Shown one piece after another: positions 1,385-41,480 of a DNA stretch of 64,000 bases. Under the pieces are notes generated by a model. It searched no databases, had not been told where the DNA came from, and saw nothing but the letters and a program-made list of their open reading frames with translations. A program made the translations under genes and the position numbers. Numbering within the stretch: the first letter of the stretch is position 1; each line of letters opens with the position of its first letter. Location: IMG/VR virus record IMGVR_UViG_3300005670_000014, positions 24,786 to 88,785 of that record. One strand, 5' to 3'. Origin of the DNA: a virus (Duplodnaviria; Caudoviricetes).

Positions 1385-1594
1385 TTAGTTTACTTTAACA
1401 ACACAACCATCTTCAATGGTTGCAGTAGCATACCATTTATGAGGCTGTGGGTAGTGTGGTCCTTCCAATGCTACCTTACCATTCTTGGGAGTATTGCCAC
1501 CAAAAGGTCCGGGCTGGAAAATGGTCACGCGATCACCTTTGGCAATTGCTTCCTTCAAAGCTTTCTTTGTTTGAAAATTGGTGGAAGTATACAT
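1385..1594 (-). CDS. phage hypothetical protein (NFxTKKALKEA...QPGPFG...LEGPHYPQPHKWYA)
   Basis: ORF track trimmed to the ATG after GGAGAATTAAC; motif recalled from other phage genomes. Confidence 0.75.
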   Translation of the reverse strand: MYTSTNFQTKKALKEAIAKGDRVTIFQPGPFGGNTPKNGKVALEGPHYPQPHKWYATATIEDGCVVKVN

Positions 1595-1630
1595 GTTAAT
1601 TCTCCAAGTTGTTCGTGGGTTGCGCAAAAT

Positions 1631-1672
1631 TGGCGCAATCGCAGTGTATCACGCCAATGAAGATTTTGCAAT
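1631..1672 (-). promoter_or_regulatory. early promoter P1
   Basis: TTGCAA-18-TACACT with extended -10 TG and downstream GCGCCA. Confidence 0.55.
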
Positions 1673-1675
1673 GAA

Positions 1676-1849
1676 TTATACTAAAAACACAGTCAAAATC
1701 TTGAATGTGTTTAAAGTAAAATCTTGGCTGAGTAAATTCTCCACAGCCAATCTTGCCATTTCAGCGCATGTTGCGCCAAATCGAAAAGAACTTTTACGAA
1801 TACTGTTCTTACGAGTCACAGCAATGTACGTAATTCTGAATTCGTTCAT
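1676..1849 (-). CDS. hypothetical 57-aa protein (MNEFRITYIAV...)
   Basis: ORF track 1676..1969 trimmed to the ATG after GGAGAATTAGTC; promoter P2 lies in the trimmed part. Confidence 0.55.
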   Translation of the reverse strand: MNEFRITYIAVTRKNSIRKSSFRFGATCAEMARLAVENLLSQDFTLNTFKILTVFLV

Positions 1850-1886
1850 GACTAATTCTCCAAGTTTTCCAGTGCTTACACCATGC

Positions 1887-1927
1887 TGGCGCATGGCAAT
1901 TTTAACACGGCATTTAAGAGTTTGCAA
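1887..1927 (-). promoter_or_regulatory. early promoter P2
   Basis: TTGCAA-actctt...-17-TAAAAT, TG extension, GCGCCAG 6 nt downstream. Confidence 0.65.
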
Positions 1928-2091
1928 ATAATACTTGACAACTAACTTTAGTTTCTGTATAGTGAACACACTCCGTAGTAAGAGAAAAGAGTGCTAAAGA
2001 TTTTATATCAGGTTGCTTTGTTTGATGTTCGGTTCTGCACTCCGATTACTACCTTCAAACAAAACAACCTTTTTATTTGGAGATTTTTAAA

Positions 2092-2973
2092 ATGATTACG
2101 TTAAAACGTCGAGAAATAAAGCCCGTTTTAGTTTCCAATCAAGACGGTAAATTGAAAACGGATTCTTTAATTGTGGCGCGAGTGTTTGAAAAAGAGCATT
2201 TTAATCTGATGCGTGATATTAGAAACATTACAGAATCAGATACGTATCTGAAGCGAATTAAAAATGGTACACAACCCAATTTTGAATTGTGCTTTAGAAT
2301 CAATGAATTAGCCAATGGTAAAAGAGTTCCTTACTACGAAATGGATCGTCAAGGTTTTGAAATTCTGGCAATGGGCTTTACGGGTGAAAAAGCACTAGAA
2401 TGGAAATTTAAATATTCTGATGCATTTGCTGCAATGGAAGAATTGTTGAAAAAGGAGCGTATTGTTGTTCAAGATAATCCGTTCAATTTGGAAGAGTTAG
2501 GTTTGGGATTGTTGCAAGTTGGATCTGAGCAACGACAAACAGCTAAACAGGTGCGTTGTCGTTGGGTGAACATCTTGCAAAATTCCATTGGTTGTGGAAA
2601 CATCTGGGTTTGTCGTTTGACTAATGAAATCTACCAAAGTTTGTTGAATTGTCCGCAAGCAAACGCCAGAAATTTTCGTCAGCACATGAATCTTCCATTG
2701 ATCTCTGCCATATTTTTGACGCGGGATCAATTAGAGGGCCACATACAGTCTTTCGTTACCGACATTGAATTGAGTGCAATCAGATTGTATTCTTTAAATC
2801 GTGAAGTCACCTTTGGCGAAATTCGGGAATTTATGTTGGGACAAGCTAAGATGTACCATAAGCAGTTGGTACGAATTGCACAGCAACCACCTTCAGCATT
2901 AGTGTTTGATCATGAATACAATGTGGTGCCAATTCTTCCATACCGTGGAAGAAGGATGCAACAAACAGAGTAA
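2092..2973 (+). CDS. rha: Rha-family phage regulatory protein with C-terminal helical extension
   Basis: TDSLIVARVFEKEHFNLMRDIRN and YEMDRQGFEILAMGFTGEKALEWKFKYSDAFAAME are typical Rha motifs; GGAG RBS before ATG 2092. Confidence 0.88.
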   Translation: MITLKRREIKPVLVSNQDGKLKTDSLIVARVFEKEHFNLMRDIRNITESDTYLKRIKNGTQPNFELCFRINELANGKRVPYYEMDRQGFEILAMGFTGEKALEWKFKYSDAFAAMEELLKKERIVVQDNPFNLEELGLGLLQVGSEQRQTAKQVRCRWVNILQNSIGCGNIWVCRLTNEIYQSLLNCPQANARNFRQHMNLPLISAIFLTRDQLEGHIQSFVTDIELSAIRLYSLNREVTFGEIREFMLGQAKMYHKQLVRIAQQPPSALVFDHEYNVVPILPYRGRRMQQTE

Positions 2974-3082
2974 TACACTCCACTCTGCCAATACGCCGGG
3001 GTGATGTAAATTTTCATCTTAATCATTGCAATTCATCAGATTTTACAGATAAAGTCTTAACGCCACTTCTCAATCTCGCCCC

Positions 3083-3105
3083 AAAAATCCCGCCCGAAGG
3101 CGGGA
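3083..3105 (-). terminator. intrinsic terminator
   Basis: On the minus strand TCCCGCC-TTCG-GGCGGGA followed by TTTTT. Confidence 0.8.
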
Positions 3106-3120
3106 GTGGAAGATCATAGT

Positions 3121-3240
3121 TTAAACTGCGTGATAATCTCCGGTGAACGAATTGGGCGGGTTAATGATTTCTACAATAATCATCGACCCGATCAGATAGT
3201 ACGTGTAACCCGGATATTGAAACGTAGTAAAAGGCAGCAT
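3121..3240 (-). CDS. 39-aa mini-protein (MLPFTTFQYPGYTYYLIGSMIIVEIINP...)
   Basis: Translated by hand; GGAGAATT RBS; ends just before the terminator; similar to its upstream neighbour. Confidence 0.55.
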   Translation of the reverse strand: MLPFTTFQYPGYTYYLIGSMIIVEIINPPNSFTGDYHAV

Positions 3241-3251
3241 ACAATTCTCCG

Positions 3252-3395
3252 TCACAATAAGTTCAGTTCTAAATCCCACAATGGGAAGGTGAAAACCTTG
3301 TACTCATTGACGGGTTGATGAATCTGCATGACGCAATGTTCAGCCAGCAGATAAAATGTTACGTCATCACCTGGCAAAGCGGCAAATGGTAGCAT
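3252..3395 (-). CDS. 47-aa mini-protein (MLPFAALPGDDVTFYLLAEHCVMQIHQP...)
   Basis: Translated by hand; GGAG RBS; ungapped similarity to 3121-3240. Confidence 0.55.
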   Translation of the reverse strand: MLPFAALPGDDVTFYLLAEHCVMQIHQPVNEYKVFTFPLWDLELNLL

Positions 3396-3406
3396 GTAAG
3401 TCTCCA

Positions 3407-3712
3407 TTATGGTTGGAAACCAAATTCAGAATCATCGGGGTCGTCATAGCCCCCTTGTTCCGGGCATTCTTCATCGTGCGTATCGGGGTCACAAACACCA
3501 CCACAATCTGCGCACACCCACACGCTGTTCTCTTTGGACGTGGCAAATCGGTCATAACGACCTTTTGTTTCCAGCGGGTAATCTTCCGTGAGTGCCTTTT
3601 GTATGGTTTCGTGGTATGCCGTAGCACACCCAGTTTCTTCATCACATGGGAAAAATCCATCTTCCGACCGATAATCTTCCCAACCGGGGCAACCCGTATT
3701 GAACATGCACAT
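3407..3712 (-). CDS. acidic Cys-rich 101-aa protein (CxxCxxxC)
   Basis: ORF track trimmed to the ATG after GAGGAGAATT; about 25 D/E versus 6 K/R. Confidence 0.7.
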   Translation of the reverse strand: MCMFNTGCPGWEDYRSEDGFFPCDEETGCATAYHETIQKALTEDYPLETKGRYDRFATSKENSVWVCADCGGVCDPDTHDEECPEQGGYDDPDDSEFGFQP

Positions 3713-3725
3713 GGTAATTCTCCTC

Positions 3726-3947
3726 TTACGCGGAATAGCGATTAATGATCTGACGATCCACGATGTAATCAAACCCTTGCCGATCTACATCGGCCAGCGT
3801 GAATAATGGACGACTCTCTTCATCCAGCACCACAATGGACACTAGATTTTCACGATGGTCTTGTGCCAACAATTCGTTAGCCCATTCTACCAACGCATCA
3901 AATGACGAATCGTTCTTCCATTGTGCAAATGACATGGCGCGAAGCAT
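3726..3947 (-). CDS. hypothetical 73-aa protein
   Basis: ORF track trimmed to the ATG after GGAGAAATT. Confidence 0.65.
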   Translation of the reverse strand: MLRAMSFAQWKNDSSFDALVEWANELLAQDHRENLVSIVVLDEESRPLFTLADVDRQGFDYIVDRQIINRYSA

Positions 3948-3985
3948 ACTTAATTTCTCCGTAGTGTTGGGGTGTTTACGCTTAC

Positions 3986-4026
3986 TGGCGTAAGCGCAGT
4001 TTAGCACGGTTTAAAAGAGTTTGCAA
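3986..4026 (-). promoter_or_regulatory. early promoter P3
   Basis: TTGCAA-actctt...-17-TAAACT with TG extension. Confidence 0.65.
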
Positions 4027-4332
4027 CTATGGAACGATCTTGGGTGTACGAAGTACCACAAATTCTTCCAATGTCGCACCGAGTTCTTCCATTTTGTCGG
4101 CAGTGATCTCCATACCCCGTAAATCTGCTGGAATGTTTAATACCAGATGGAAGTAACGTCCTTGTCGATCCCAAATTTCGGCAGCGAGATGGATGGGTAG
4201 TGTTCCCAACACCACGTCACCTTTTTCGACAGTCTTCACATCGAAATGCTCAACAATCTGAGCATCAAAGCCTTTACGCGCTGCCCAATCTTTGGCACCT
4301 TGATGCCGGGTCACAAAATAAGTCTTAGCCAT
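4027..4332 (-). CDS. csx16: Csx16 (VVA1548)-family protein, putative cyclic oligoadenylate ring nuclease
   Basis: 101 aa with FVTRHQGAKDWA, VEHFD, GDVVLGTLPIHLAAE, YFHLVLNIPADLRGMEITADKMEELGATLEEF, matching the Csx16 pattern as I recall it. Confidence 0.82.
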   Translation of the reverse strand: MAKTYFVTRHQGAKDWAARKGFDAQIVEHFDVKTVEKGDVVLGTLPIHLAAEIWDRQGRYFHLVLNIPADLRGMEITADKMEELGATLEEFVVLRTPKIVP

Positions 4333-4472
4333 GTTAGCGATCTCGTCTAAAAGTAGTGGACAAAATATAAAGAATCATGCCGAAAATAACGGCAAGCATA
4401 ATGATCTCACTCATCAAACACCTCCATTAATTCGTGGATAAAAGCCATCCTTGGCTCAAGAATGCTGTTTAG

Positions 4473-5123
4473 CTAGTTTTTGAATTGCCGCCAGCACTCT
4501 CTAACATGGTCTACAACATTCATCGGATTATGACCTCCGATCTTGTTGCGTGGATGTTCTTCATCAATCCATGGGGAGTCGTTATACTCTAGCCAGTGCC
4601 AAAATTGGTTTTGGACTCTGGCTACAGCTTCTTTACCACCCAAGTCGCCTTCACACGCGACTAGCCATTCACGTCTGACGTATACGGGATGCGTCGGCAG
4701 TATAAATTCTGCTGATGTAGCGGGGATGCTACCTTCGGGCCGCTTGACATCTACCCACCACGCATACGGTGCGTGTTGGTAATTCTTCAATTCACTATCT
4801 AACACTGGAAAATCTTCCAGTGCTGATGCACCCAAGCACAAGTAGCCGTAGTAATCTCCATCCTCAACGAGTTCGTCATCATCCGTGGGAAACGGAATCT
4901 CGGCAATGAACACAGTGATCTCCACCGGACCCAATCTGTGTTCCGGGTCAATGGTATCCCACAGCGGGATGGGTGTCTTAACCTTCCATAGTTGGCCCAC
5001 ATTTGCATCTTTCGGCTGTACATGTGCAAAGTCTGCCCGTGCTTTGGTGGTGCGGGCGATGGCGTCTTTCACGAACGCTGGAACTTCTACCACTTGAGCA
5101 GTGGCCTTTTGAAACTCGGACAT
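4473..5123 (-). CDS. hypothetical 216-aa protein
   Basis: ORF track; GGAG RBS; preceded by double-hairpin copy C. Confidence 0.75.
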   Translation of the reverse strand: MSEFQKATAQVVEVPAFVKDAIARTTKARADFAHVQPKDANVGQLWKVKTPIPLWDTIDPEHRLGPVEITVFIAEIPFPTDDDELVEDGDYYGYLCLGASALEDFPVLDSELKNYQHAPYAWWVDVKRPEGSIPATSAEFILPTHPVYVRREWLVACEGDLGGKEAVARVQNQFWHWLEYNDSPWIDEEHPRNKIGGHNPMNVVDHVRECWRQFKN

Positions 5124-5154
5124 GGAGTATCTCCGGGTGGATGAAACAACAAAT

Positions 5155-5220
5155 GGGTTTTAATGCAAGCATACCTTGTGACGACATGCTTGCATTAAAA
5201 CCCACTCTTGCGAGTGGGTT
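5155..5220 (-). promoter_or_regulatory. overlapping double-hairpin element, copy C
   Basis: 18-bp stem 5155-5172/5186-5203 and 9-bp stem 5199-5207/5212-5220 with GCAA loop on the minus strand. Confidence 0.7.
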
Positions 5221-5227
5221 ATGGGGA

Positions 5228-6103
5228 TTACGCCGCCTTGGCCGCCTTGGCCGCTTTGCCCGACTTGCCAGTCTTGACAACTGGGGGCTTGATGACCTTA
5301 ACGGTAGCATCCGGCTTGGCAGTCTCGGGCTTGGTCTCTGCCGCTTTAGCCAAAGTAGCGGCCTTTTGCGCCTGGACTTTCTTCATCGCCGCTTGTGCAG
5401 CCGTGGCGAAGTCTTTAGCACCCGACAATCGCTTGGCAACGGTCAAGCCACCTTCCGCTAGCAAGTTAGCAAATTTCTTTTGCGACTCAATGGCTTGCAG
5501 CACCTCATCGGTGGGCAACAATTCTTGATTTTCATGGAAGCAGCGAATCTCGGATGCACTCCCATCCATAGCGTAGTCTTCCATGCAGCCGTAATCTAGT
5601 GTGGTATACGCTGATGGAATCTTAGTAATGGGCGCACCCACCTTTACTGAACGGGAAGTACCTACCCACAACGATTGGGTAGCGGCCATTCTCCAGCTTT
5701 GCGCCCACGCAATGAACTCTTGTGGCCTACCCGTCTTGGCAGCATCCTTACTCTTGTGCCGATCCACCTTTGACTTGCTGTTGGCGTTAAACGCCAATAC
5801 AAATCTGGGTGCTGTTCCGCAAGCATAGCCTACGCTCACGGGATCGGCAATCGTTTGGTATTCTTTGGGGATGAATTCCCCTTTTTGGAAAGTTTCCCAG
5901 TTCTCCAGCATCCATGCGATTGTGGGGAAATTCCCTGCGTTGCACAAAAGGTGTGCGAACATATTCGCTTCCATGCTCTTATTACTCACCGCCAAACCTG
6001 CGGTTGCCGTAGCACACCGTTTCAATTCTAGCCCGGTGATCTGTTTGATCAGTACCAAAGCCTCTTCGCGTTGTTGCTTCACTAAACTGTTATCTTTAGC
6101 CAT
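5228..6103 (-). CDS. hypothetical 291-aa protein with Lys/Ala-rich basic C-terminal tail
   Basis: ORF track trimmed to the ATG after GGAGAATATAGC; ends ...KTGKSGKAAKAAKAA. Confidence 0.8.
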   Translation of the reverse strand: MAKDNSLVKQQREEALVLIKQITGLELKRCATATAGLAVSNKSMEANMFAHLLCNAGNFPTIAWMLENWETFQKGEFIPKEYQTIADPVSVGYACGTAPRFVLAFNANSKSKVDRHKSKDAAKTGRPQEFIAWAQSWRMAATQSLWVGTSRSVKVGAPITKIPSAYTTLDYGCMEDYAMDGSASEIRCFHENQELLPTDEVLQAIESQKKFANLLAEGGLTVAKRLSGAKDFATAAQAAMKKVQAQKAATLAKAAETKPETAKPDATVKVIKPPVVKTGKSGKAAKAAKAA

Positions 6104-6171
6104 GCTATATTCTCCGCAGCGCATTAAAGCGCATTTAAAAGTCTCAAAAAAAGCGCCATGCATTGCCATGC

Positions 6172-6212
6172 TGGCGCAAATGGATTTTAGCACACTCGAA
6201 AAGAATGTGCAA
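6172..6212 (-). promoter_or_regulatory. early promoter P4
   Basis: TTGCAC-attctt...-17-TAAAAT, TG extension, GCGCCAG 6 nt downstream. Confidence 0.65.
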
Positions 6213-6221
6213 CGGTTAATT

Positions 6222-6389
6222 TTAAAATTCTGGCAATGCAATTACATCCAGCACTTCATCTGCCCATGTAGCTGCTTTCAGCACCTGATGCTTAGCATCC
6301 GCCTCATTAACAGCCATCAGACACAAATTGATTTCCGTTCCATGGAAATCATCTTCAATAACATACACCACCACGATGAATTCTTTCAT
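6222..6389 (-). CDS. 55-aa acidic protein (MKEFIVVVYVIEDDFHG...)
   Basis: Translated by hand; GGAGAATA RBS; directly after promoter P5. Confidence 0.6.
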   Translation of the reverse strand: MKEFIVVVYVIEDDFHGTEINLCLMAVNEADAKHQVLKAATWADEVLDVIALPEF

Positions 6390-6426
6390 GACGTATTCTC
6401 CGTAAATGCGCTAGTCCACTATGTGC

Positions 6427-6467
6427 TGGCGCGTTTGCAGCATAACATGCTGCGGAAGAGTTTGCAA
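6427..6467 (-). promoter_or_regulatory. early promoter P5
   Basis: TTGCAA-actctt...-17-TATGCT, TG extension, GCGCCAG 6 nt downstream. Confidence 0.65.
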
Positions 6468-6475
6468 CTATTTCG

Positions 6476-6685
6476 TTAAGAGTGTTGCAAACTATTTGCA
6501 GAACTAAATGCACGATCTCCGTGCTTATCCCAACATGATGGGTAAATCACCTGTTGTTTCCGGCTCTCATAAAAGCCGGAACCATCCAAAAAGAGCGTCA
6601 ACATTACATCGGGTGCTAAGATGATGTTGATGCCAGTATCTTTGTATCCAAATGATGCGAATTTCTCCGCCATTGAACCGTTCAT
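6476..6685 (-). CDS. hypothetical 69-aa protein
   Basis: ORF track; AGGAG RBS; overlaps the upstream stop. Confidence 0.6.
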   Translation of the reverse strand: MNGSMAEKFASFGYKDTGINIILAPDVMLTLFLDGSGFYESRKQQVIYPSCWDKHGDRAFSSANSLQHS

Positions 6686-6870
6686 GTTAACTCCTTATAA
6701 ATCACATCGTCCAAATATCTGGACGCTTGGGTGTAAGTGACTTTAAATTCTTTAGCAAAGTCACACAAAAAGGCGTGGGTTGCAGCGGGGGACGTCTTGC
6801 CACGCAAGATGAAATCCATCACACGCTCTTTGCATTTCAAATCCAATGCGCTCATCTGACTCATTTCCAA
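6682..6870 (-). CDS. hypothetical 62-aa protein
   Basis: ORF track; coupled to its neighbours. Confidence 0.6.
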   Translation of the reverse strand: MEMSQMSALDLKCKERVMDFILRGKTSPAATHAFLCDFAKEFKVTYTQASRYLDDVIYKELT

Positions 6871-30755: not shown

Positions 30756-31207
30756 TGATGAATATTATGACCCCGGCTGAAGCTTTTGAACGTTATTATG
30801 ATTTAGGTGTTAAGCGTAATTTATTACGTTTATCTAAGATCATTGGTATTGAATTTGATTTATTGTCCAGTTGGGCGGATGGTTATGCATGGGATGAAAA
30901 AGTTGAAGCACGGGATAAAGAAGTTAATCGAGTTTTTGAACAAGTATACAAACAACGTACTTTAGACATTCGAAATCGACTAGTAAGACAGATTGATACT
31001 TTATTAAAAGATATGGAAAGTTGTAGTTTGGGGTTGCCATTCGGGGTAACGTCTCCTGCTGAATTACGTTCAGTTGCACAGGCGTATCGAGAGTTAGTTC
31101 AAGCGAATGTATTAGCGATGACTAAAGGTGTGGATATGGGTGGTGGTAAAGCGCCTAAGACTTGGAGTGATTTGTTAGAGCAAATTGAAAATACGGAAAC
31201 TGAATGA
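30755..31207 (+). CDS. probable terminase small subunit
   Basis: Directly upstream of TerL; HTH-like AFERYY...LSKIIG...LSSWADGYAW followed by a helical oligomerisation segment. Confidence 0.65.
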   Translation: MMNIMTPAEAFERYYDLGVKRNLLRLSKIIGIEFDLLSSWADGYAWDEKVEARDKEVNRVFEQVYKQRTLDIRNRLVRQIDTLLKDMESCSLGLPFGVTSPAELRSVAQAYRELVQANVLAMTKGVDMGGGKAPKTWSDLLEQIENTETE

Positions 31208-31208
31208 C

Positions 31209-33884
31209 ATGGATCGTAAAAAGAATTGGAAAAGTGAACTTGTTTTACGTGGACGACAAGATCCAGCTTGGTGGATTGAGAGTGTTTTAGGTGGAAGTCT
31301 TTGGGAAAAACAAAAAGAGATTTGCAAAGCTTTAGTTAAGTATGAAAGAGTCGCGGTAGCAGGTGCGTTTGGCTTTGGCAAATGTGTTGCTTTTGGTGAG
31401 CGCATAGTACTTTCCAATGGCAATGTTGCTAACGCTGAAGATTTGATTGGTAAATCTTTTAAAGTTCTTGCTTGGGATGAAAAAACTGGACAACAAATCG
31501 AAGCTGAGGCTTTTGCTGAAGATAATGGTTTAAAACCAGTTTGTAAGATCACTACTAAATCGGGGCGTTGCATTATTCGTACTGAAAACCATCCTTTATA
31601 CACTTGCTATCTTCCAAAACGAAATGTTCATCGGATACCAACATTGCCAAAATGGAGACCTATTAATAATTTAAGGGGTAATATGGTTGTTGCCGTACCT
31701 TTGAAATTGAATGTTTTAGCAACAAAAACAATTACAGAAGATGAAGCTAAGTTGATTGGCTATTTATTGGGAGATGGCGGTACGACAACTGGTATAACCT
31801 TTACACAAGAGTTGGGAAAAACTCTTGATGATTTTAGAGATATTGTTAATCGTTTTAACTGTGATGTTATCAAAAAAACTGATTCACGATACGATTATCG
31901 TGTGATTGGACGTGAACGTACTGAAGATAATATAAATAGATACAATCCACTGTTGGAAAAATTTCGTGCATGGGGATTAATTGGACATAAAGCTAAACAT
32001 AAATATTTACCAGATTTTATTTGGGAATTAAATGATGATTCTTTAGCTTTAATTATGAATCGTTTATTTGCTTGTGACGGTTGGGTGTATATACCAAAAA
32101 CAGATCGTGAAACATCTAGAATTGCTATTACTTTAGCATCTGAAAAATTAATTCGTGATATTGAATTAGTGATGCTTCGTTTGGGTATTTATGGAAATGT
32201 TTCTTATGGACAAAAAACTTGCAATGGTAAAAAGTTTGACGCTTGGACTTGGCAAGTTTTTAAAGGTGTAGAAGTTTTAAAATTTATTGATCGTGTTGGA
32301 ATTTTTGGAAAAGAAATTAAATTAGAAAAATGTCGTCAATTTGTTTTAACAAAAACCAGTTTTAAGCATACACTGGAATGGCCTTTTAAAAGTCTTCCAG
32401 AAGGTTATGCTTGGGAACAAATAAGATCGATTGAATATTTAGGATTGCAACCAACTGTGGGTATTTGTGTACCGGAATATAATACGTACTTGACTACGTT
32501 TGTAGAACATAACACTCATTTGGCCGCGAGATTAATGTTATGGTTTTTGCTCTGTCATCCAAATTCTAAAGTAGTATCCACGGCTCCCACACAGAGGCAG
32601 GTGAAAGATTTACTTTGGTCAGAATTACGTGCAGCACATGCTAAAGCAATTATGCCGTTAGGTGGAGAACTTTTACAGTTACAATACAAATTGGGCGAAG
32701 ATCATTTTGCGGTTGGTTTTAGTACAGATTCTGAAAATATAGATCGATTTACGGGCTACCATGCACCTCATCAGTTGGTAGTTTTTGATCAAGCTGGAGG
32801 TATTGATAGTCCAATTTGGGAAGCCGCAGAAGGTTTAATGACTTCTGCAAATTGTCGTTGGTTAGCTATTTCCAATACAGCTATTTCCAGTTGCGAATTA
32901 GCTAACATCTGTATGCCAGATCGTAAAACCAAGTTTGGTGACTGGCACGTTATTCGGGTAAAAGCAACTGAAACGCCTAATGTCTTAGCTGGTAAAAATA
33001 TTTATCCCGGTTTGATTGCTTATGATTGGGTAAAAAAGCGTGAAGAAGCTTGGGGTCGGGATGATCCATTATACAAAATCTTCGTAGAAGCAGAGTTTAT
33101 TCCTGACTCTGAAATGGTGGTTGTACCGTACAAAGCGATTGTTGATGCATTCAATATGAATGGGGAGTTGGGTTCGCATATTGAAGTGGGCTTAGACGTA
33201 GCGCGAATGGGGACGGACAGTACCGTATGGACTGCGGTTAGTGGTTCACGGGTGATGGAAGTCAAGCGAGTCACGGGCAATACCACCATGCAAGTGGTAG
33301 GTTTGACGGTAGAGTTTGTAAAGCATTTACAAGAAACTTATGGTTTACCCGTAACTGCGGTAAAGATTGACGTAATTGGTTTAGGTGCGGGTGTATATGA
33401 TCGATTGATAGAATTGGATGACGACAATATTGAAATTCCCGTAGTGGCAGTCAATAATGCGGAAGTCAATATTGTGGTAGATAAAGAACGTTATTCTAAT
33501 GTTCGTGCGGAGATGGCTTGGGCATTTCGTTATCGAATTGATCATGGTAATGTGGGATTGGCGGCGGTACAAGTTCACGATTATGAAATTAAAGAGTATA
33601 TTCGTGGTGATATTCAAGCCATGCGTTATAAGATCACTTCACAAGGTAAGATTCAGTTATTACCCAAAGAAGAACTTAAAAAGAATTTAGGACGATCTCC
33701 TGACTATTGGGATTCATTAGTTATGGCATTTGAAACACCGGGTGGTGGACCTCCGATGCTGGAATCGATATCTTCAAAGAAAGAACGTGAAGAAGAGTTT
33801 TCAATTTCAGAAGAAGAGTGGCAAATTTTAATGGGTACGCGGATGCCCATGGATGATCGATTTTTCCGAGACGTACAATTTTAA
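31209..33884 (+). CDS. terL: terminase large subunit, intein-containing
   Basis: VAVAGAFGFGK|TH Walker A, STAPT, VVFDQA Walker B, ISN, nuclease GLDVARMGTD, IDVIGLG, RSPDYWDSL; start trimmed to ATG 31209. Confidence 0.92.
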   Translation: MDRKKNWKSELVLRGRQDPAWWIESVLGGSLWEKQKEICKALVKYERVAVAGAFGFGKCVAFGERIVLSNGNVANAEDLIGKSFKVLAWDEKTGQQIEAEAFAEDNGLKPVCKITTKSGRCIIRTENHPLYTCYLPKRNVHRIPTLPKWRPINNLRGNMVVAVPLKLNVLATKTITEDEAKLIGYLLGDGGTTTGITFTQELGKTLDDFRDIVNRFNCDVIKKTDSRYDYRVIGRERTEDNINRYNPLLEKFRAWGLIGHKAKHKYLPDFIWELNDDSLALIMNRLFACDGWVYIPKTDRETSRIAITLASEKLIRDIELVMLRLGIYGNVSYGQKTCNGKKFDAWTWQVFKGVEVLKFIDRVGIFGKEIKLEKCRQFVLTKTSFKHTLEWPFKSLPEGYAWEQIRSIEYLGLQPTVGICVPEYNTYLTTFVEHNTHLAARLMLWFLLCHPNSKVVSTAPTQRQVKDLLWSELRAAHAKAIMPLGGELLQLQYKLGEDHFAVGFSTDSENIDRFTGYHAPHQLVVFDQAGGIDSPIWEAAEGLMTSANCRWLAISNTAISSCELANICMPDRKTKFGDWHVIRVKATETPNVLAGKNIYPGLIAYDWVKKREEAWGRDDPLYKIFVEAEFIPDSEMVVVPYKAIVDAFNMNGELGSHIEVGLDVARMGTDSTVWTAVSGSRVMEVKRVTGNTTMQVVGLTVEFVKHLQETYGLPVTAVKIDVIGLGAGVYDRLIELDDDNIEIPVVAVNNAEVNIVVDKERYSNVRAEMAWAFRYRIDHGNVGLAAVQVHDYEIKEYIRGDIQAMRYKITSQGKIQLLPKEELKKNLGRSPDYWDSLVMAFETPGGGPPMLESISSKKEREEEFSISEEEWQILMGTRMPMDDRFFRDVQF
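31383..32513 (+). mobile_element. 377-aa intein with LAGLIDADG endonuclease inside the TerL P-loop
   Basis: Starts CVAFGE, block B TENH, GYLLGDG and RLFACDG motifs, ends VEHN before Thr+1. Confidence 0.92.
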
Positions 33885-33947
33885 ATTTTTATTGACAAGG
33901 ATGTAATTTCATGGCACAGTATTCGAATCAGACTATTAGGCTTATTC

Positions 33948-35537
33948 ATGAGCTTTAAAATCTTTTCATTTAATGATTGGTTATCCGAAGGCGGCGCTGC
34001 GGGGCTGCGTTCTTTTGTTCTTAATAATTCTTATGAAAGGATGTGTTGGGTATATGCGTGTGTTAATCGCATTGCCACATCTGCCAGTTCAGCACCTTTA
34101 GTTTTTTATCAAGGAAAACCAGATCGTATCCCTTCAGATGCTCCAAATGAAAAAGAACGGATCAAAGATCGAGAGCATCTAGTCTATCAATTATTTAATC
34201 CACCAAATCCTCCCACAATCATTAGTTTAAAACAATTAATGTATCGTACTTTTGTGCATGTCAGTATTGATGGATTGGTTTTTTGGATTATTGAACGTAA
34301 GAAAGGTGTAGCAACATCCATTGATATTCGTTTAAAGACTGAATTACGCCCCATTTTAGTGTACACCAATGCTGATCCAGCCCGTCCGCAATTACGCGGT
34401 TGGGAAGATTCATCGGGTAAAAAATATTTACCAGAAGATGTACTTCCGTTGGATAATTATAATCCAAAAGATCCTTTAGCGGGATTATCACAACTCAGTC
34501 CTTCACGGATGAGTTTAGAATCAGAGTTTAGTATTGCGGGATGGAATTCGGCTTTTTTCCGTTCCGGGATGAAAAACCCATTATTGATTCAAGCAAAAGG
34601 TCAGTTAACCCGCGAACAAAAGAAAGACATTCGCAGTGAAGTGGTGAATTATTACAGTGGGATTGATGGAGCGCACGGAGCGTTGTTAATGCAAGGTGGA
34701 GTTGAAGTCAAACCGCTCGTTGTCAATCCAAAAGATGTTGATTTCATTCGTGGTAAAGAATTAAACCGTGAAGAAGTACTTGCAGTGTTTGGTGTCCCTC
34801 CATCAATTGTGGGTATTTTTAGTTACAGTAATTACAGTAATGTGAGAGAACAAATTAGAATCTTTTGGGAACATACTTTATTACCCAAAATGAATCACGT
34901 TTTAGAACTCATTCAATTTAATATTTTAGATCGTGATTTTCCTGGCGTGTATGCGCAATGGGATGTTAGTAAAGTCGCTGGTTTAGCTCCTGATCCTGTT
35001 GAATTAGCAGCACCAGCATCTCAGTATCATGCCATGGGCTATTCCCCGTCACAAACTGCGACCATTTTAAAATGTCCAGGACTAGAACCAGATAAAGATT
35101 TTAAAAAGCCGGAACCCATTAAGCCACAGATGCCAACAGCAGATAATGAAGATGACGAAACATCTGCTGAAAAGCCCAAAAAACCTAAAAAGCCAAAAGA
35201 TCCTAATGCTGGTGATCCGAAGCCTTCGGATAAGCCCAAACCCGATAATAACAATTCTTATTTAAAAGAATTGTTAATGGATAAGATATATTTATTTGCA
35301 ATCAATGTTCCTTTATCGGCTCCAACACATAAACAAATTTTTGCTCTTTGGCAAGATTTGGTAATTTCTGTATTACAAGAAAAGTTTAAAGGTTTTGATT
35401 TTTTACAATTTAATTTATTACCTGAGATGCTTTGTCAAAAACCAACTGAAAAGATGCGACAAGAATTCATTAAAAATAGTGAGTTAATAGCTGAAAAAAT
35501 GCTAAACACTATTTACAAAGCAAAAGTAAGACTATAG
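33948..35537 (+). CDS. HK97-type portal protein
   Basis: WVYACVNRIA, GLSQL, FFRSGMKNP, LLMQGG, VFGVPPSIVG, YSNVREQ; P/K/D-rich linker near the C-terminus. Confidence 0.9.
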   Translation: MSFKIFSFNDWLSEGGAAGLRSFVLNNSYERMCWVYACVNRIATSASSAPLVFYQGKPDRIPSDAPNEKERIKDREHLVYQLFNPPNPPTIISLKQLMYRTFVHVSIDGLVFWIIERKKGVATSIDIRLKTELRPILVYTNADPARPQLRGWEDSSGKKYLPEDVLPLDNYNPKDPLAGLSQLSPSRMSLESEFSIAGWNSAFFRSGMKNPLLIQAKGQLTREQKKDIRSEVVNYYSGIDGAHGALLMQGGVEVKPLVVNPKDVDFIRGKELNREEVLAVFGVPPSIVGIFSYSNYSNVREQIRIFWEHTLLPKMNHVLELIQFNILDRDFPGVYAQWDVSKVAGLAPDPVELAAPASQYHAMGYSPSQTATILKCPGLEPDKDFKKPEPIKPQMPTADNEDDETSAEKPKKPKKPKDPNAGDPKPSDKPKPDNNNSYLKELLMDKIYLFAINVPLSAPTHKQIFALWQDLVISVLQEKFKGFDFLQFNLLPEMLCQKPTEKMRQEFIKNSELIAEKMLNTIYKAKVRL

Positions 35538-35562
35538 TATTCACTGATTATAGGAGATTACC

Positions 35563-36981
35563 ATGTTTAGTATTTGCCAATTTGATTTTAAAAGACCTAC
35601 TTTATTGAAAAAAGGGGTCGGTATTAAAAACGTATATACCGCGATTGCCAGTACGGCGGCTGTAGATCGTCATAAAGAAATTTTAGTACCTCGCGGGGTC
35701 ATTACTGATGCTTTTATGAAGAATCCAGTGATGTTGGATATTCATAATTCGCGGACTTATCCAGTGGGTAAGGTCGTTGAAATTAAGGTCAGTAAAGAAT
35801 CTGTTGAAATTCATTTTGAATTTGCAGATACTGAAGAAGGTGTTAAACTGGAAAAACTTTATACTTCCGGTTTTATGAACGCTTTTTCGGTAGGTTTTAT
35901 TCCTAAGAATTATATTGATCTATATGACATGCGGGGTGATGATGGCAAGTTATCCATCACTTCGTTAGAAGTTGAATTGCCCAATGGCGAAAAGGAACTT
36001 TTAGATCTGAGTCAATACAAAGAAATTCCTTATGGAATTATTTCCAAATGGGAACTCTTAGAAGTGAGTCCTGTTTCAGTTCCGGCCAATCCCGAAGCGT
36101 TAATGCTCCGTGCGAAAGATGACATTGTTCGTAAATACTTGGACTCCGGTCATCATCAAGTTGCTGCCAAGTTGCTAGATGCACAACTCAGTGAGCATAT
36201 TACCGAACTGCGTAAGCATTTTGATGATCTTTTGAATACGTCAAAAGATGAACATGTTGAAATGAGTTACGCTGTTCCATTCCAAGATTCTAAGGCTTTA
36301 GATCAAGAATGGGATGCTTCGGAAGCTCGTGCATGTTTGGCATTATGGTCAAGTGAAGATAAGACTGGTGAAAAGGAAACTTTGAACTGGTCTAAATTCG
36401 CTAAAGGCTTTGGTTGGATCGATCTGGAAAAAGCCGATCAGTTCCGTAGCTATCGTTATATTCATCATACTGTAGAAGGTGATGAATTGTATGTTGTGGC
36501 TGAAGGTTTGAAAGCGGCCATGGCGGATTTGTTAACGGATAAGTCAGTTAATAATGCTGAAGAAGTTTACGCACATCTAGCGAAGCATTATGAAGCTTTT
36601 GATCTGACTGCACCAGAATTTAAAGATTATACTGAGGATGAATTGCAAAAGATTCGTTCCGGTGAATCTTTGATTGAAACCATCGAAGAGACTGAATTGG
36701 AAAGTTCAGAATCTGAAAAAGATGTTAATCCAGATGTTCTTAAAGATTTGATCAATATTGGATTTACTGAAGTTAAAGATCAAATTTCCGAATTGGAAGA
36801 AACAGTTCGGTTGCGTATGAACATCCTCAGTAAGATGTTTGACGAGTTGCAGAAAGAATTGTTGACTTCTAAGCCAACCACTGAGACTGTTACAGTCGAA
36901 GATGATTCTGATGAAGTCAAACTGTTTGCTGATAAACTCACTGCATTATCTTCCATGTTTGAAGATATTCGTGTTCAATAA
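35563..36981 (+). CDS. HK97-family prohead protease with long C-terminal extension
   Basis: ASTAAVDRHKE, NPVMLDIH, PVGKV, AFSVGF, WELLEVSPVSVPANPEAL. Confidence 0.9.
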   Translation: MFSICQFDFKRPTLLKKGVGIKNVYTAIASTAAVDRHKEILVPRGVITDAFMKNPVMLDIHNSRTYPVGKVVEIKVSKESVEIHFEFADTEEGVKLEKLYTSGFMNAFSVGFIPKNYIDLYDMRGDDGKLSITSLEVELPNGEKELLDLSQYKEIPYGIISKWELLEVSPVSVPANPEALMLRAKDDIVRKYLDSGHHQVAAKLLDAQLSEHITELRKHFDDLLNTSKDEHVEMSYAVPFQDSKALDQEWDASEARACLALWSSEDKTGEKETLNWSKFAKGFGWIDLEKADQFRSYRYIHHTVEGDELYVVAEGLKAAMADLLTDKSVNNAEEVYAHLAKHYEAFDLTAPEFKDYTEDELQKIRSGESLIETIEETELESSESEKDVNPDVLKDLINIGFTEVKDQISELEETVRLRMNILSKMFDELQKELLTSKPTTETVTVEDDSDEVKLFADKLTALSSMFEDIRVQ

Positions 36982-37004
36982 AACCTTTGTGGAGTGTATG
37001 TAAC

Positions 37005-38147
37005 ATGTTAGATCATGATATGAAAAAGCAGTTTGACGAATTTTCGAGTTCGGTTAAAGAATCTATTGCATTGTTTAAGAATCAAGATGCTTTGGTTAAA
37101 ACTTTGCAACAGCGGATTGGTGAACTAGAACAGCGTGTACTGGATAACAGTGTTTGCACGATCTTAGAGTCTACTCATGGCGAAGTGGGCTTTACTGATC
37201 CTAAAAAAGCTAAAGAGTTTGTTACTTTAGTTCGTCACATCTTTAACAAGGATGATTATGCGGTTAAAGATTTGGTTGAAGGTCGTGATGCAGATGGTGG
37301 ATATCTGGTTCAGCCCGAATATCGCAACACCATGATGTCGTTGATTGAACAGTATGGCGTGGCTCGGCAGTTTTGTACGGTCATTCCCATGTCTACCACT
37401 GAACTGATCATGCCGAAGCTGACAGGTGGCGTTCAAGTTTACTGGATTGGTGAAGGCCAAACAATTACTGAGACTCAGCCGACGTTTGGTGAGTTCCGTA
37501 TGACCGTCAAGAAATTGGCGGCATTGGTTCCGATGACCAGTGAATTGCTGAATGACGCGAATCTAGCTATTGCTAACTTGTTGGCAACTCTGTTTGCTCA
37601 AGCGTTGGCTAAGGAAGAAGATCGTATCGTATTTGTGGGTAATACTGCTGCCAGTGATCCGTTCAATGGTGTGCTCCGTGATCCTGGTGTCTACAGTCAT
37701 ATTTTGGGCAGTGGCAAGACCAAGTTCACTAGTGCTACGGCTGGAGATTTGGCTGACGTGACTTCGCGTAATTCGTTGTATACGCAAGGTGCTCGTTGGT
37801 TCATGCACCGCACGATCTTTAACGTGATTCGTCAGTTGCAAGATGGTGATGGCATGTACATTTGGGGTAATCCCACGCAAAGTTCTGATCAAGGTCTTAT
37901 TTGGGGCTATCCGTACACCTTGGTTGAAAATATGCCAGCGGTTACGGCGACTGCGGTCAGTACTCCGTATATCTTCTTTGGTAATCTGATGCATTACTAC
38001 ATTGGTGATCGTCAGCAGATGACTTTGGCCCGTTCGGAGCATGTTGGCTTTGCGGCGGACAAAGTGTATCTTCGTGTACTTCAGCGTGAAGGTATGGCTT
38101 ATGCTTTACCGGAAACCGGCGTTGCGGTAACGACTGCGGCTAGCTAA
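37005..38147 (+). CDS. HK97-fold major capsid protein
   Basis: N-terminal coiled coil, DGGYLVQPEY, WIGEG, KKLAALVPMTSELLND, LIWGYP, IFFGNL, IGDRQQMT; start at ATG 37005. Confidence 0.93.
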   Translation: MLDHDMKKQFDEFSSSVKESIALFKNQDALVKTLQQRIGELEQRVLDNSVCTILESTHGEVGFTDPKKAKEFVTLVRHIFNKDDYAVKDLVEGRDADGGYLVQPEYRNTMMSLIEQYGVARQFCTVIPMSTTELIMPKLTGGVQVYWIGEGQTITETQPTFGEFRMTVKKLAALVPMTSELLNDANLAIANLLATLFAQALAKEEDRIVFVGNTAASDPFNGVLRDPGVYSHILGSGKTKFTSATAGDLADVTSRNSLYTQGARWFMHRTIFNVIRQLQDGDGMYIWGNPTQSSDQGLIWGYPYTLVENMPAVTATAVSTPYIFFGNLMHYYIGDRQQMTLARSEHVGFAADKVYLRVLQREGMAYALPETGVAVTTAAS

Positions 38148-38155
38148 GTTTGATA

Positions 38156-38190
38156 GAGTGGGACTGCGAATTTTACAGTCCCACTCATTT
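38156..38190 (+). terminator. stem-loop after the capsid gene
   Basis: GAGTGGGACTG-cgaatttta-CAGTCCCACTC with a short T-run. Confidence 0.55.
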
Positions 38191-38203
38191 CCAAGGAGTT
38201 TTT

Positions 38204-38560
38204 ATGTTATATCAAGCAACAAGACAGTTTGGTGATTTTGTTAATGGAATTGAAATTCCTTATGGTGGTTATGTTGAAACGGATTGTATTAAATGGGTAC
38301 AACGGATTGGTCCTTTTTTAAGACCTTTGTCACCCAGTGAAAAGCCAAAAGGAAAAATAATCAGTGTTAAAGATACACTTGAAGATGTTGTAGTTGAAGT
38401 GGTGATTAAGGAAGATATCGCTATTAAGGAAGAAGTACTTGAAGAGCCTATTCTTGAAATTACTGAAGAAGCTCTGGTTGAAGAAACTGATGTTACGGAA
38501 GAATCTGTGGTTGAAACGACACCTTTACGTCGTAAAATTAAACCATTACGTAATAATTAA
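38204..38560 (+). CDS. head-associated hypothetical protein with acidic C-terminal half
   Basis: ORF track trimmed to the ATG after AAGGAG; position after the capsid gene. Confidence 0.7.
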   Translation: MLYQATRQFGDFVNGIEIPYGGYVETDCIKWVQRIGPFLRPLSPSEKPKGKIISVKDTLEDVVVEVVIKEDIAIKEEVLEEPILEITEEALVEETDVTEESVVETTPLRRKIKPLRNN

Positions 38561-38571
38561 GGATTTTTAGC

Positions 38572-39249
38572 ATGTTAGATGATATTGACTCTTTTGTTGA
38601 ATTGGTTGTTACTGAGGCATGTGATCTGTTGCAATTAACAGCACCAGAAACTTATGCTAAAGTAACAACTGATTCAAGAGTCAATTTATGTGCTCGTGCT
38701 GCATATACACAGATTACTCATTATTTAAATCGAGATTTGATTTATAAAGAACATTACGAAGAATATTTCGAAGAAGATACTACAATTACATTAAGATGCA
38801 CACCTGTTTCAGAAATTACATTAGTGAGTATTAGTGATACTCGTTATTCTGAAGTGTTGTCAGATCCAGATAAATTCACAGTTTTAGATCCAGATGAAGA
38901 TTATCGTTTAGTTCGTGAAAAACGTTTAGTGATTTATAATTTAATTAAACTAGGTGAGATCGTTGGAAGTACGACTCAACGGATAAATGCGTATGTGGAA
39001 TATACAGGTGGTTATTATACTAGTGAAGATATTCCAATCGTTCATAATGCTTTAGTGATGCAAACGGTTGCCAATTATAATCGAGTTCCCGCTTTAGGTT
39101 TGACGCAAATTGAAGGTGGGGGTGGCGATGCTAAAGGTGGTCGATTATTGTTAAATTTAAATTTAGTAGATGCTGGACAGTTGCTAGATTCTGTTAAAAT
39201 AATGTTAGATCCTTTTATTTATTATGGCAGTGCGGAGGATTTGACATGA
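38572..39249 (+). CDS. head-tail connector (gp6-like adaptor)
   Basis: Position; ITHYLNRDLI...LRCTPVSEI...VEYTGGY...ALVMQ adaptor pattern. Confidence 0.7.
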   Translation: MLDDIDSFVELVVTEACDLLQLTAPETYAKVTTDSRVNLCARAAYTQITHYLNRDLIYKEHYEEYFEEDTTITLRCTPVSEITLVSISDTRYSEVLSDPDKFTVLDPDEDYRLVREKRLVIYNLIKLGEIVGSTTQRINAYVEYTGGYYTSEDIPIVHNALVMQTVANYNRVPALGLTQIEGGGGDAKGGRLLLNLNLVDAGQLLDSVKIMLDPFIYYGSAEDLT

Positions 39250-39983
39250 GCTTTAAATTTTATGTTTCGACGAATCAGCTTTTACGAGATTTAACAAAAT
39301 TGTTGAAAGATGTAGAGGATTATCCTAAAACAAAATTAGGTGCTCCACGAATTGCTATTCAATATCAAAATAATAAAGTTTTTCAAGATATTTTGTGGAA
39401 TAATTTAATTACTAATTTAAGAAATTTAGGTGGTGGTTTTGCTTCGGGACATTCGATTGTTGAACAAGAATTACAAGTAAATCCCGGTTCCGGTTCGGGT
39501 AAACGGGGTGTTGCGGCATATCAAGCTGGATTTAAGAATACCGTTCGTGGAACAAAAGCTTTTAAGATTGCTAGTATTTGGGATCAAGGTGGAACGATTT
39601 GGCCGCGTAAAGCGAAGTATTTAACGCAACCTTTATCTGATGGTAAGAAAATTGATTTATCACCATTGGAATACGATGATGCAGAACATGTTGCACAATT
39701 TTATAAAGGTATTGGTTCGCCTTCTCGTCATCCGCTCATTCAACAAAGTGTTCACGGGTTGATGGTGATTCGTAAACGCCCAGTTAAATCTTTAGTCCGG
39801 CGTAAAAAAGGTGAAAAGAGAAATTTGGGTCAACATGTTGCAACCTTTTTAGTATTGAACTATCAAAAGCATTTGAGTACTCAATGGATCTATCACGCTG
39901 CATTAAAAACTCGTACTGAAGTGCTTCCTTTAATGATTAAAACAGGTAAAGAGTATATTAAATCTCAAAAGGTCTTGTCATGA
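39246..39983 (+). CDS. neck/tail-completion protein (HK97 gp10-like)
   Basis: Position; basic; IASIWDQGGTIWPRKAKYLTQP motif. Confidence 0.6.
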   Translation: MSFKFYVSTNQLLRDLTKLLKDVEDYPKTKLGAPRIAIQYQNNKVFQDILWNNLITNLRNLGGGFASGHSIVEQELQVNPGSGSGKRGVAAYQAGFKNTVRGTKAFKIASIWDQGGTIWPRKAKYLTQPLSDGKKIDLSPLEYDDAEHVAQFYKGIGSPSRHPLIQQSVHGLMVIRKRPVKSLVRRKKGEKRNLGQHVATFLVLNYQKHLSTQWIYHAALKTRTEVLPLMIKTGKEYIKSQKVLS

Positions 39984-40444
39984 TTTTGGCAGATCCACGC
40001 ACATTGATCATGGATGAAATGAAGCGAAGATTAAACTTGGCATTTCCCAATGTGATGCAATATGAAGGTGCTGGATCGGTTTGGGGTGAATGGTCAAGAT
40101 CATTACCTTGTATTCATATTTATGAACATACTGAAGAATGTAAAAGCAGTAAAATTGCTGCTAAAGATGTATATTTAAATACCTTACCAGTACAAATAGA
40201 ATTTGTTTCCAAACTGCAAAATCAAGCATTGTTGTTTACGGAAGGCAGAAAAAAGCGATTAAGTTTACGTCAAGCTATTGAATTGGACGACCGTTTCATG
40301 CAAAATAAAGGCTTGGAAACTGAAGGCCAAAATTTGGTAGTAAGCTATTTGATGACTGCAAATGAAATTGTACATGTAATACCTGGCGTAGTAGATGTTG
40401 CAGTGATTTACGATTTTGTTTACATCGAGAAATTTTTTGGTTAA
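39980..40444 (+). CDS. tail terminator-like protein
   Basis: Position before the tail tube; LPCIHIYE pattern. Confidence 0.6.
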   Translation: MILADPRTLIMDEMKRRLNLAFPNVMQYEGAGSVWGEWSRSLPCIHIYEHTEECKSSKIAAKDVYLNTLPVQIEFVSKLQNQALLFTEGRKKRLSLRQAIELDDRFMQNKGLETEGQNLVVSYLMTANEIVHVIPGVVDVAVIYDFVYIEKFFG

Positions 40445-40463
40445 CGATTGAGGAGTTTTTTTC

Positions 40464-41480
40464 ATGTCTACACCTAATGTTGAAAATTATACACTTGGCC
40501 GTGGGATGTTGTATTGGGATCCTTGGGATTCGACTAATTTGCGGTATGAAGGCGAACGTGCTTTAGGTAATGCTCCTGAAATTAGCATCAATATGAATGC
40601 GACGTTCTTGGATCATTATTCCAGCATGAGTGGTTTCAAATCGAAGGATAAGACTGTTGTTAATGAATTGGCTCCGCAGATTACATTTGCATTGGATGAG
40701 TTGGTTTCTGATAACTGGCAGATGCTAGTATTCGGTAACAAGACTGAAGTTAGTCAGAGTGCTGATGATTCGAATACGTTGGTTATTGCTTCTCCGTTGA
40801 AAGATCGTTATTATGATCTTGGTGCGCGGGCAATTGCCAGTACTCGTATTACTCATGGTACAGTTACGGGAGGTCCTTTCCAGGTTGGTGAGACTATTCG
40901 TAATGCTGCTGCTCCCAATAATGCTACTGCTGTTGTTGTAGAAGTGGGTGCGACTTGGTTGATCGTCAATACCGTTGCGGTTAATGGTACTGGAACAGCA
41001 TTTGCAGCGTCTGATACCTTGACTGGTGCTACAAGCTCTGCTACGGCTACTGCCAGTACTGGTGCGGTAGCGGTATCGGGATTGGTGTCGTTGAAGACCA
41101 CTTCCGGTTCTACTTACTATACTCCCACCACTGATTTTACTGTGGATGCGGTAAGTGGACGTATTTACTTTCCTTCGACCTCGACCATTGTTGAAGGCAC
41201 GAGCTTGACGGTTAATTTTGGCGTTGCTGCGACAACTTATAGCAAGATCACTGCGTTGACTGCGGTGGGCCAAGATGGTAAGATCCGGTACGTGTCCGAT
41301 AACCCAGTGGGCGGCTCGTATGAGATGATCATCTGGAAGGTGCGTATCAAGCCGAATGGTGATACTGCTCTGATCGGTGATGACTGGGCGCGGTTGCCGT
41401 TCCAAGGTGACATTCTGCGTGACGCCACGTACCACCCGACATCTCCTTATATGGATATGATCGTCGCCGACGCGGCGTAA
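40464..41480 (+). CDS. major tail (tube) protein with inserted beta domain
   Basis: ENYTLGRGMLY...LGNAPE...DHYSSMSGFKSKD, RYVSDNPVG, IWKVRIKPNGD; followed by a terminator. Confidence 0.85.
   Translation: MSTPNVENYTLGRGMLYWDPWDSTNLRYEGERALGNAPEISINMNATFLDHYSSMSGFKSKDKTVVNELAPQITFALDELVSDNWQMLVFGNKTEVSQSADDSNTLVIASPLKDRYYDLGARAIASTRITHGTVTGGPFQVGETIRNAAAPNNATAVVVEVGATWLIVNTVAVNGTGTAFAASDTLTGATSSATATASTGAVAVSGLVSLKTTSGSTYYTPTTDFTVDAVSGRIYFPSTSTIVEGTSLTVNFGVAATTYSKITALTAVGQDGKIRYVSDNPVGGSYEMIIWKVRIKPNGDTALIGDDWARLPFQGDILRDATYHPTSPYMDMIVADAA

Follow-up and report, generated by a model that had tools for sequence, protein, structure and literature searches.

A conserved Csx16-family protein of a sludge tailed-phage lineage is a candidate ring-nuclease anti-CRISPR against type III systems

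Introduction

Type III CRISPR systems are hard for phages to evade by point mutation, and enzymes that destroy the second messenger of these systems are therefore a key form of counter-defence. To our knowledge, AcrIII-1 is the only ring nuclease proven in viruses; AcrIII-1 is faster than Crn1. Here we describe a gene encoding a protein of the ring nuclease family Csx16, csx16, which is located in a stretch of 64,000 nucleotides (hereafter the window) of the IMG/VR virus record IMGVR_UViG_3300005670_000014, and we compare it with the described ring nucleases of cells and viruses.

In the account given in PMC13148439, AcrIII-1/Crn2 (DUF1874) is presented as a viral ring nuclease that degrades cyclic tetra-adenylate (cA4) and acts as an anti-CRISPR (Athukoralage et al. 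2020). Recent papers of the group that characterised Csx16, this one among them, state that virus-encoded ring nucleases act as anti-CRISPRs; Csx15, a related small CARF-like protein, sequesters cA4 well but cleaves it only very slowly (PMC13148439). For Csx16 itself, Hoikkala et al. 2025 showed that the purified protein fully degraded a 100-fold excess of cA4 in a buffer containing EDTA, and that cyclic tri-adenylate (cA3) and cyclic hexa-adenylate (cA6) were not degraded, even at a 10-fold higher enzyme concentration (PMC12409355). In cells, Csx16 is the second most common stand-alone ring nuclease, found in 68 loci and always together with cA4-dependent effectors, and a search of 28,114 phage genomes counted 36 with AcrIII-1, four with Csx20 and two with Csx16 (PMC12409355). 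No experiments on a phage Csx16 are reported in the literature that we found. An initial annotation of the window, which was made from the sequence alone, proposed that the gene encodes a ring-nuclease anti-CRISPR of the Csx16 family and stated that Csx16 degrades cA4, which is correct for the assayed protein. The core of this proposal passed all computational tests that we applied, while three of its side claims go beyond what these tests show, as set out below.

Results

The phage gene encodes an intact member of the Csx16 family

The csx16 coding sequence lies on the minus strand at positions 4027..4332 of the window and comprises 101 codons followed by a stop codon, while the plus-strand frame over the same positions is riddled with stops. 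Its 101-aa product (P0001) was identified based on family hidden Markov models (HMMs), a structure model, the conserved core of the family and the pattern of substitutions. It harbors the three motifs RHQGAKDW (residues 9-16), GDVVLGTLPIHLAA (residues 38-51) and LNIPADLRGME (residues 65-75), so that the open reading frame (ORF) with its three motifs, for which the initial annotation had given no strand, is borne out. The family profile PF09652 (Cas_VVA1548) matched the protein in a Pfam scan with 111.5 bits (E=2.2e-32, profile positions 1-89 of 91) and the NCBIfam profile TIGR02620, "CRISPR-associated protein Csx16", with 93.7 bits (E=5.9e-27), both well above the curated cutoffs of 25 and 46.35 bits, respectively, as an HMM search had been expected to show; four PADLOC models of Csx16 matched as well (best E=1.7e-35). 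Judged by these profile scores, the assignment to Csx16 is far above chance. The Pfam scan, read up to E=1, gave no match to DUF1874 (AcrIII-1/Crn2) and, besides PF09652, only two rows at chance level.

The conserved core of the family is almost completely retained. The phage protein keeps all 15 invariant columns of an alignment of 23 Csx16 sequences and 25 of the 27 columns that are at least 90% conserved across 83 cellular Csx16 proteins; the two departures are G57Q and the conservative exchange L76I. Among the retained residues are R9, H10, W16, H29, D39, T44, Y60, H62 and R72, which represent every polar candidate in the core for binding or catalysis. The published screen for Csx16 had discarded matches that lacked the highly conserved residues of the family. 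At positions 3, 14, 26, 64 and 67, the phage clade has signature residues of its own. In total, the Csx16 family comprises 1,648 clusters at 50% identity, tandem and fused forms included. Such forms are tandem two-domain proteins of about 205 aa, or carry the Csx16 domain as an N- or C-terminal fusion in proteins of 400-900 aa.

An AlphaFold2 model of the phage protein (pLDDT 93.5, pTM 0.82) predicts a small Rossmann-like fold with alternating strands and helices, and the best fold matches were Rossmann-like domains. The Crn1-family structures Sso2081 and Sis0455 were among the weak fold matches (Foldseek E of 0.06 for Sis0455), and in neither the PDB nor a set of viral models did Foldseek return a match to the model at E<=0.001. 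A PDB sequence search found no solved Csx16 structure. The prediction of a homodimer from two copies of the protein reached a median score of 0.41 against a mark of 0.42, and we used it neither for nor against dimerization.

The gene is carried by a tailed phage without type III CRISPR genes

The window represents the final 64 kb of a linear IMG/VR record of 88,785 bp, which originates from activated sludge, has a GC content of 39% and is about 68% complete according to CheckV. Based on PHROG matches, it encodes a hallmark module of tailed phages on the plus strand (31185..41480) comprising large terminase, portal (E=8e-49), head protease, major capsid protein of the HK97 type (major head protein, E=3e-61) and major tail protein. 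Further genes of the record code for a ribonucleotide reductase and a nuclease subunit similar to SbcC, and host housekeeping genes are absent. Going by this gene content, the record is a genuine tailed phage. Its major capsid protein shares no more than 32% identity with its counterpart in any GenBank phage, from which we conclude that the phage has no cultured relative.

According to the initial annotation, the window contained neither cas genes nor a CRISPR array; this holds and extends to the whole record. Across all 88,785 bp we found no match to the Cas10 palm domain, RAMP proteins or Cas1, even at E<=1, no match to type III/CARF HMMs built in-house from the Cmr1-6 and CARF-effector genes that adjoin cellular csx16 genes, and no CRISPR-like periodic repeat. 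Likewise, Cas10 and RAMP genes were absent from two related IMG/VR records, one of 111 kb that is 75% complete and another of 65 kb. A phage-borne type III locus, which would have spoken against the proposal, was thus not found in the 88.8 kb at hand. The phage csx16 does not have the type III CRISPR-cas neighbourhood typical of its family, which bears on its role and not on its homology, and in this record as well as in the two related ones the gene resides on a mobile element without detectable cas genes, as would an anti-CRISPR.

csx16 is maintained by selection in related phages

Proteins that are 65-97% identical to the phage protein exist in a large protein collection, and every context that could be read was the same phage region. 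They include P0007 (82% identical), located on a 58-kb contig, as well as P0014 (66%) and P0012 (68%), whose contigs share an HNH gene, a gene for a protein of about 680 aa of no assigned family and a pRha gene; two IMG/VR contigs carry csx16 at 82% identity. At all six related phage loci, csx16 was found at the same syntenic place (82, 82, 82, 66, 68 and 68% identity). The neighbours diverge more across these loci, with 38-64% identity for a 337-aa protein and 34-73% for the 678-aa gene, and others are missing, so that csx16 ranks among the best-conserved genes of its block.

The ratios of nonsynonymous to synonymous substitution rates (dN/dS) between the phage copies were 0.05-0.21, with synonymous sites near saturation. 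Moreover, strain variants in sludge metagenomes swap genes on both sides of csx16 and keep csx16 itself: one sludge DNA run contains a joint 3713>4028 with 29 other bases in place of the 93-aa gene on the one side, and a variant joint 4332>4939 was found in a DNA run on the side of the 216-aa gene. From the low dN/dS and the retention of csx16 while its flanks are exchanged, we conclude that strong purifying selection maintains the gene in the phage genomes, and that it is not a decaying passenger.

Phage copies group apart from copies in type III-B loci

Below about 62% identity to the phage protein, the context of csx16 genes switches from the phage region to type III-B and CARF genes. The gene for P0015 (62% identical) is located downstream of Cmr3, RAMP, Cmr5 and RAMP genes, that for P0017 of Rhodomicrobium (59%) adjoins two CARF-effector genes, and that for P0019 (55%) lies ahead of Cmr2/Cas10, Cmr3, Cmr4, Cmr5 and Cmr6. 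A scan of one genome per species with a 7-sequence Csx16 alignment revealed 80 named cellular csx16 loci, none of which exceeded 57% identity with the phage protein; many belonged to Thiothrix, Thiolinea, Leucothrix and other Thiotrichales, and others to Rhizobiales, Chromatiales and Moraxellaceae. Type III or CARF genes were present within 8 kb of csx16 in 40 of the 45 cellular loci of at least 12 kb, whereas none of the seven virus-context loci (six related phage loci and the archaeal virus Drs3) had them. A CRISPR array was present in 50 cellular csx16 loci.

In a quick maximum-likelihood tree of 112 Csx16 domains (IQ-TREE, 98 columns), the 17 phage-context copies were placed on one side of a branch (SH-aLRT 88) and the 95 others, 12 of them without a context check, on the other, and none of 500 label shuffles was equally clustered. 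The phage copies thus group together, which answers the question of a separate phage clade that had been raised with the proposal. With its moderate support, this result is in line with a single phage lineage of Csx16 but falls short of proof. The tree does not place the sister group of these copies, and the donor of the gene is therefore not placed either. A capture from a host, as suggested by the initial annotation, is compatible with the tree, but its 98 columns do not settle the direction of transfer or the donor.

Among the 17 copies, P0013 and P0016 are encoded on short contigs (L094 and L095), surrounded by small orphan genes. These contigs have no gene in common with the phage of the window except csx16, which suggests that csx16 may move between elements as a unit of its own. 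In both (L094:1080-1267 and L095:1320-1508), a GC-rich terminator hairpin is located upstream of csx16, followed by TTTTTTGGTATAAGAATA, a promoter-like box.

A hydrophobic micro-ORF recurs upstream of csx16

Directly upstream of csx16, on the same strand, reading of the sequence revealed a hydrophobic micro-ORF of 26 codons (4334..4414, minus strand), which begins with MSEIIMLAVIFG. A GGAGG, which represents a strong ribosome-binding site, precedes its ATG by 6 nt, and its TAA stop codon ends 1 nt ahead of the ATG of csx16. A clear Shine-Dalgarno sequence is lacking for csx16 itself; judged by this arrangement, the two may be translationally coupled. A small hydrophobic ORF directly upstream of csx16, or overlapping its start, was also present in five related loci. 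These ORFs fall into two sequence types, one resembling that of the window (L002 and L004) and a different one (L005, L006 and L007), and L003 has none, so that the pair occurs in six of the seven phage-context loci (the window, L002 and L004-L007). PADLOC includes a profile for a fusion of Csx16 with a transmembrane segment (PDLC01940).

The genes flanking this pair are variable cassettes. A 93-aa orphan gene just downstream of csx16 (3726..4007, minus strand) has no Pfam or PHROG match, and a 216-aa orphan gene just upstream (4473..5123, minus strand) has no match in Pfam, PHROG or PADLOC; among the related loci, both occur in L003 and L005 only. The gene for the phage regulatory protein Rha (pRha; 2077..2973, plus strand; PF09669, 83.7 bits) serves as a conserved landmark and was also found near csx16 in L004, L006 and L007. 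Between the 337-aa and the 216-aa genes, a hairpin with a 20-bp stem and a terminator-like tail is located on the minus strand (5156-5202).

All of these minus-strand genes are part of a leftward block of about 37 kb with about 75 mostly short ORFs (<200 aa), which extends from position 6028 to 42825 of the record (to about position 18040 of the window) and is oriented away from the replication and structural genes, which run rightward. Almost all of its genes are orphans, and as an orphan block it is unusually large. The initial annotation regarded the small neighbours as a possible anti-defence island. This is not supported, since of about 30 proteins encoded nearby or further upstream, pRha alone gave a match in Pfam, PHROG or PADLOC. 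Comparison of the 337-aa neighbour with a protein atlas yielded no lead, and the record lacks an equivalent of the weak ArdA-like gene seen on the related contig L004.

Occurrence, transcription and host

The region was present at no less than half of its sampled words in 17 sequencing runs, and all runs containing it came from 11 studies, nearly all of them of activated sludge, wastewater or bioreactors. Contigs from RNA libraries of one activated-sludge sample include csx16 (e.g. 4045-4248), which is compatible with transcription in situ and gives neither timing nor strand. The RNA-library contigs skip positions 4412-5617, where DNA runs continue; this gap in contig cover says nothing about transcript ends or levels. 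The initial annotation also considered csx16 to be expressed early, a claim that derives from the position of the gene in the long leftward block of small genes and is not advanced by the RNA contigs.

To link the phage to a host, we compared phage DNA (positions 1-20000) with bacterial genomes, a search that scores few candidates per genome and is weak as a test for spacers. Five candidate host genomes gave only a 39-bp match at 85% identity, located in a coding sequence of an Agitococcus metagenome-assembled genome and not in an array; no match came from 107 genomes of the order that includes Thiothrix eikelboomii, and 201 Moraxellaceae genomes gave only a match at 70% identity inside the conserved pRha gene. 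Furthermore, none of 676 spacers and 50 repeats from arrays beside cellular csx16 genes had a match longer than 18 nt in the phage or its relatives. These spacers thus do not connect the phage to a host, and the phage contains no solitary CRISPR repeats. A host among the filamentous Thiotrichales is only a reasonable guess, made because these bacteria are common in sludge and dominant among the cellular Csx16 matches.

Other features of the phage genome

Three large genes of the window showed unusual architectures. The large terminase (31185-33884, plus strand, 899 aa) matches terminases over residues 444-856 only, and its N-terminal portion of about 440 residues is an extra part with a faint helicase-like match only. 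In the large subunit of the ribonucleotide reductase (26291-29440, plus strand, 1,049 aa), the reductase matches are interrupted at about residues 407-573 by a stretch that matches an endonuclease PHROG and resembles an intein or a homing-endonuclease insertion. The tape-measure ORF (42319-56307, plus strand) encodes 4,662 aa with matches only within residues 1619-2958 (best E=3e-78); if the whole protein sets the length of the tail, this tail would be among the longest known.

Discussion

The phage protein resembles cellular Csx16 in that it belongs to the same HMM family, is a stand-alone protein of the same size class (about 95-100 aa for cellular copies), carries the same core residues and has the same predicted Rossmann/CARF-like fold, and cellular copies inside type III-B loci are up to 62% identical to it. 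It differs in that no cas genes, effector or array are located nearby, in its separate tree group with signature residues, in a short C-terminal tail in its closest relatives and in the upstream micro-ORF. The presumed roles would be opposite: the cellular protein resets the signal, whereas the phage protein would sabotage it. In this respect it would be similar to AcrIII-1, a small, virus-encoded and metal-independent destroyer of cA4 that blocks all cA4-dependent effectors, properties that for the phage Csx16 are proposed by analogy. Csx20 and Crn1 are likewise small dimeric CARF-like proteins that cleave cA4, and Csx20 also occurs in a few phages, but both belong to other sequence families whose HMMs did not match the phage protein. 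The closest viral precedent is Methanobacterium virus Drs3 (MH674343, ORF 3), a tailed virus with a stand-alone csx16 among small orphan genes and without cas genes, whose Csx16 has no second in the phage collection of GenBank. However, this protein is only 39% identical to that of the sludge phage, belongs to an archaeal virus and is placed on a very long separate branch, and the gene was therefore most likely acquired independently.

We consider it probable, although by no means certain, that csx16 encodes a functional ring nuclease of the Csx16 family with which a lineage of large tailed phages from sludge counters the type III CRISPR systems of its hosts. In the proposed mechanism, the type III complex of the host would detect phage RNA and synthesize cA4, which would activate effectors with CARF domains (Csx1, Csm6 and Can types). 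Acting probably in dimeric form, the phage Csx16 would capture this cA4 and cleave it without metal ions to linear di-adenylate products; with the activator gone, the CARF effectors would stay off, as they do with AcrIII-1. Our computations provide the homology, the intact core, the phage context without cas genes, the purifying selection and the separate tree group, and they tie the nearest cellular copies to type III-B loci that include CARF effectors. The cA4-specific, EDTA-resistant activity is that of one cellular Csx16 (PMC12409355) and is carried over by analogy. That the phage copy shares this activity, acts on type III systems of the host and is produced early enough is what we infer.

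The same observations were weighed against other explanations. The phage protein might be a sponge that binds cA4 and hardly cleaves it, if at all, which would still make it an anti-CRISPR, acting by another mechanism. Csx15, a good sponge with very slow nuclease activity (PMC13148439), sets a precedent, phage sponges for cyclic nucleotides are known, and the signature residues of the phage clade could be read in this direction. Nevertheless, the phage protein has kept the residues under strong conservation in cellular copies, the only Csx16 assayed processed cA4 in 100-fold excess, and catalysis would be more economical against an amplified signal, so that we regard a mere sponge as unlikely. 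Quite unlikely, too, is a different target such as cA3 or the signals of CBASS-type systems, by which the protein would counter a defence other than type III. This idea gains from the fact that specificity was measured in a single cellular member; against it stand the specificity for cA4 that the assayed Csx16 kept at 10-fold higher enzyme concentration, the conserved core of the phage copy and the association of its cellular relatives with type III-B loci and CARF effectors.

Since about a third of the genome is not sequenced and some phages carry CRISPR systems, csx16 might alternatively be the off-switch of a type III/CARF system of the phage itself. We judge this very unlikely, because cas and CARF genes are absent from the 88.8 kb, as are Cas10 and RAMP genes from the related 111-kb and 65-kb records, and because csx16 has a conserved place amid small orphan genes in the six phage loci and is not, as in cells, an immediate neighbour of cas genes. 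Phages also pick up host genes at random, and the neighbours of csx16 defy annotation, as might be expected if csx16 had been taken along from a CRISPR locus of the host as a functionless passenger, or if the contig were host DNA. Yet the dN/dS of 0.05-0.21 across copies that have diverged to synonymous saturation, and the persistence of csx16 where both flanking genes are swapped, speak against a passenger, and the full structural module together with the absence of host housekeeping genes speaks against host DNA; this explanation is highly improbable and was disfavoured already by these results. A further reading builds on the recurrence of the hydrophobic gene in six of the seven phage-context loci and on the fusion profile in PADLOC: the phage Csx16 could be a specialised viral branch that acts together with the upstream hydrophobic peptide and is tethered to the membrane, or has altered kinetics or substrate range. 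By analogy to AcrIII-1, which outpaces Crn1, it might for instance cleave faster or more broadly than cellular Csx16. We give this reading a small chance.

The activity of the Csx16 family, the viral ring-nuclease strategy and the existence of csx16 genes in phages are already published. What is added here is a conserved and selected lineage of Csx16 in bacterial phages, which is distinct from the cellular copies and has a recurrent upstream hydrophobic gene. The gain is thus incremental, with family activity and phage copies already in print, but the phage lineage provides a clean candidate for a first experimental test of a Csx16-type anti-CRISPR. It is a practical test case, being short, confidently modelled, strongly conserved and abundant in wastewater metagenomes of many studies, and cellular copies of up to 62% identity could serve as controls. 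If the proposed anti-CRISPR role is true, the Csx16-type viral ring nuclease would represent a second family in this class of anti-CRISPRs, one of bacterial phages, and cellular off-switches would have been recruited by phages more than once.
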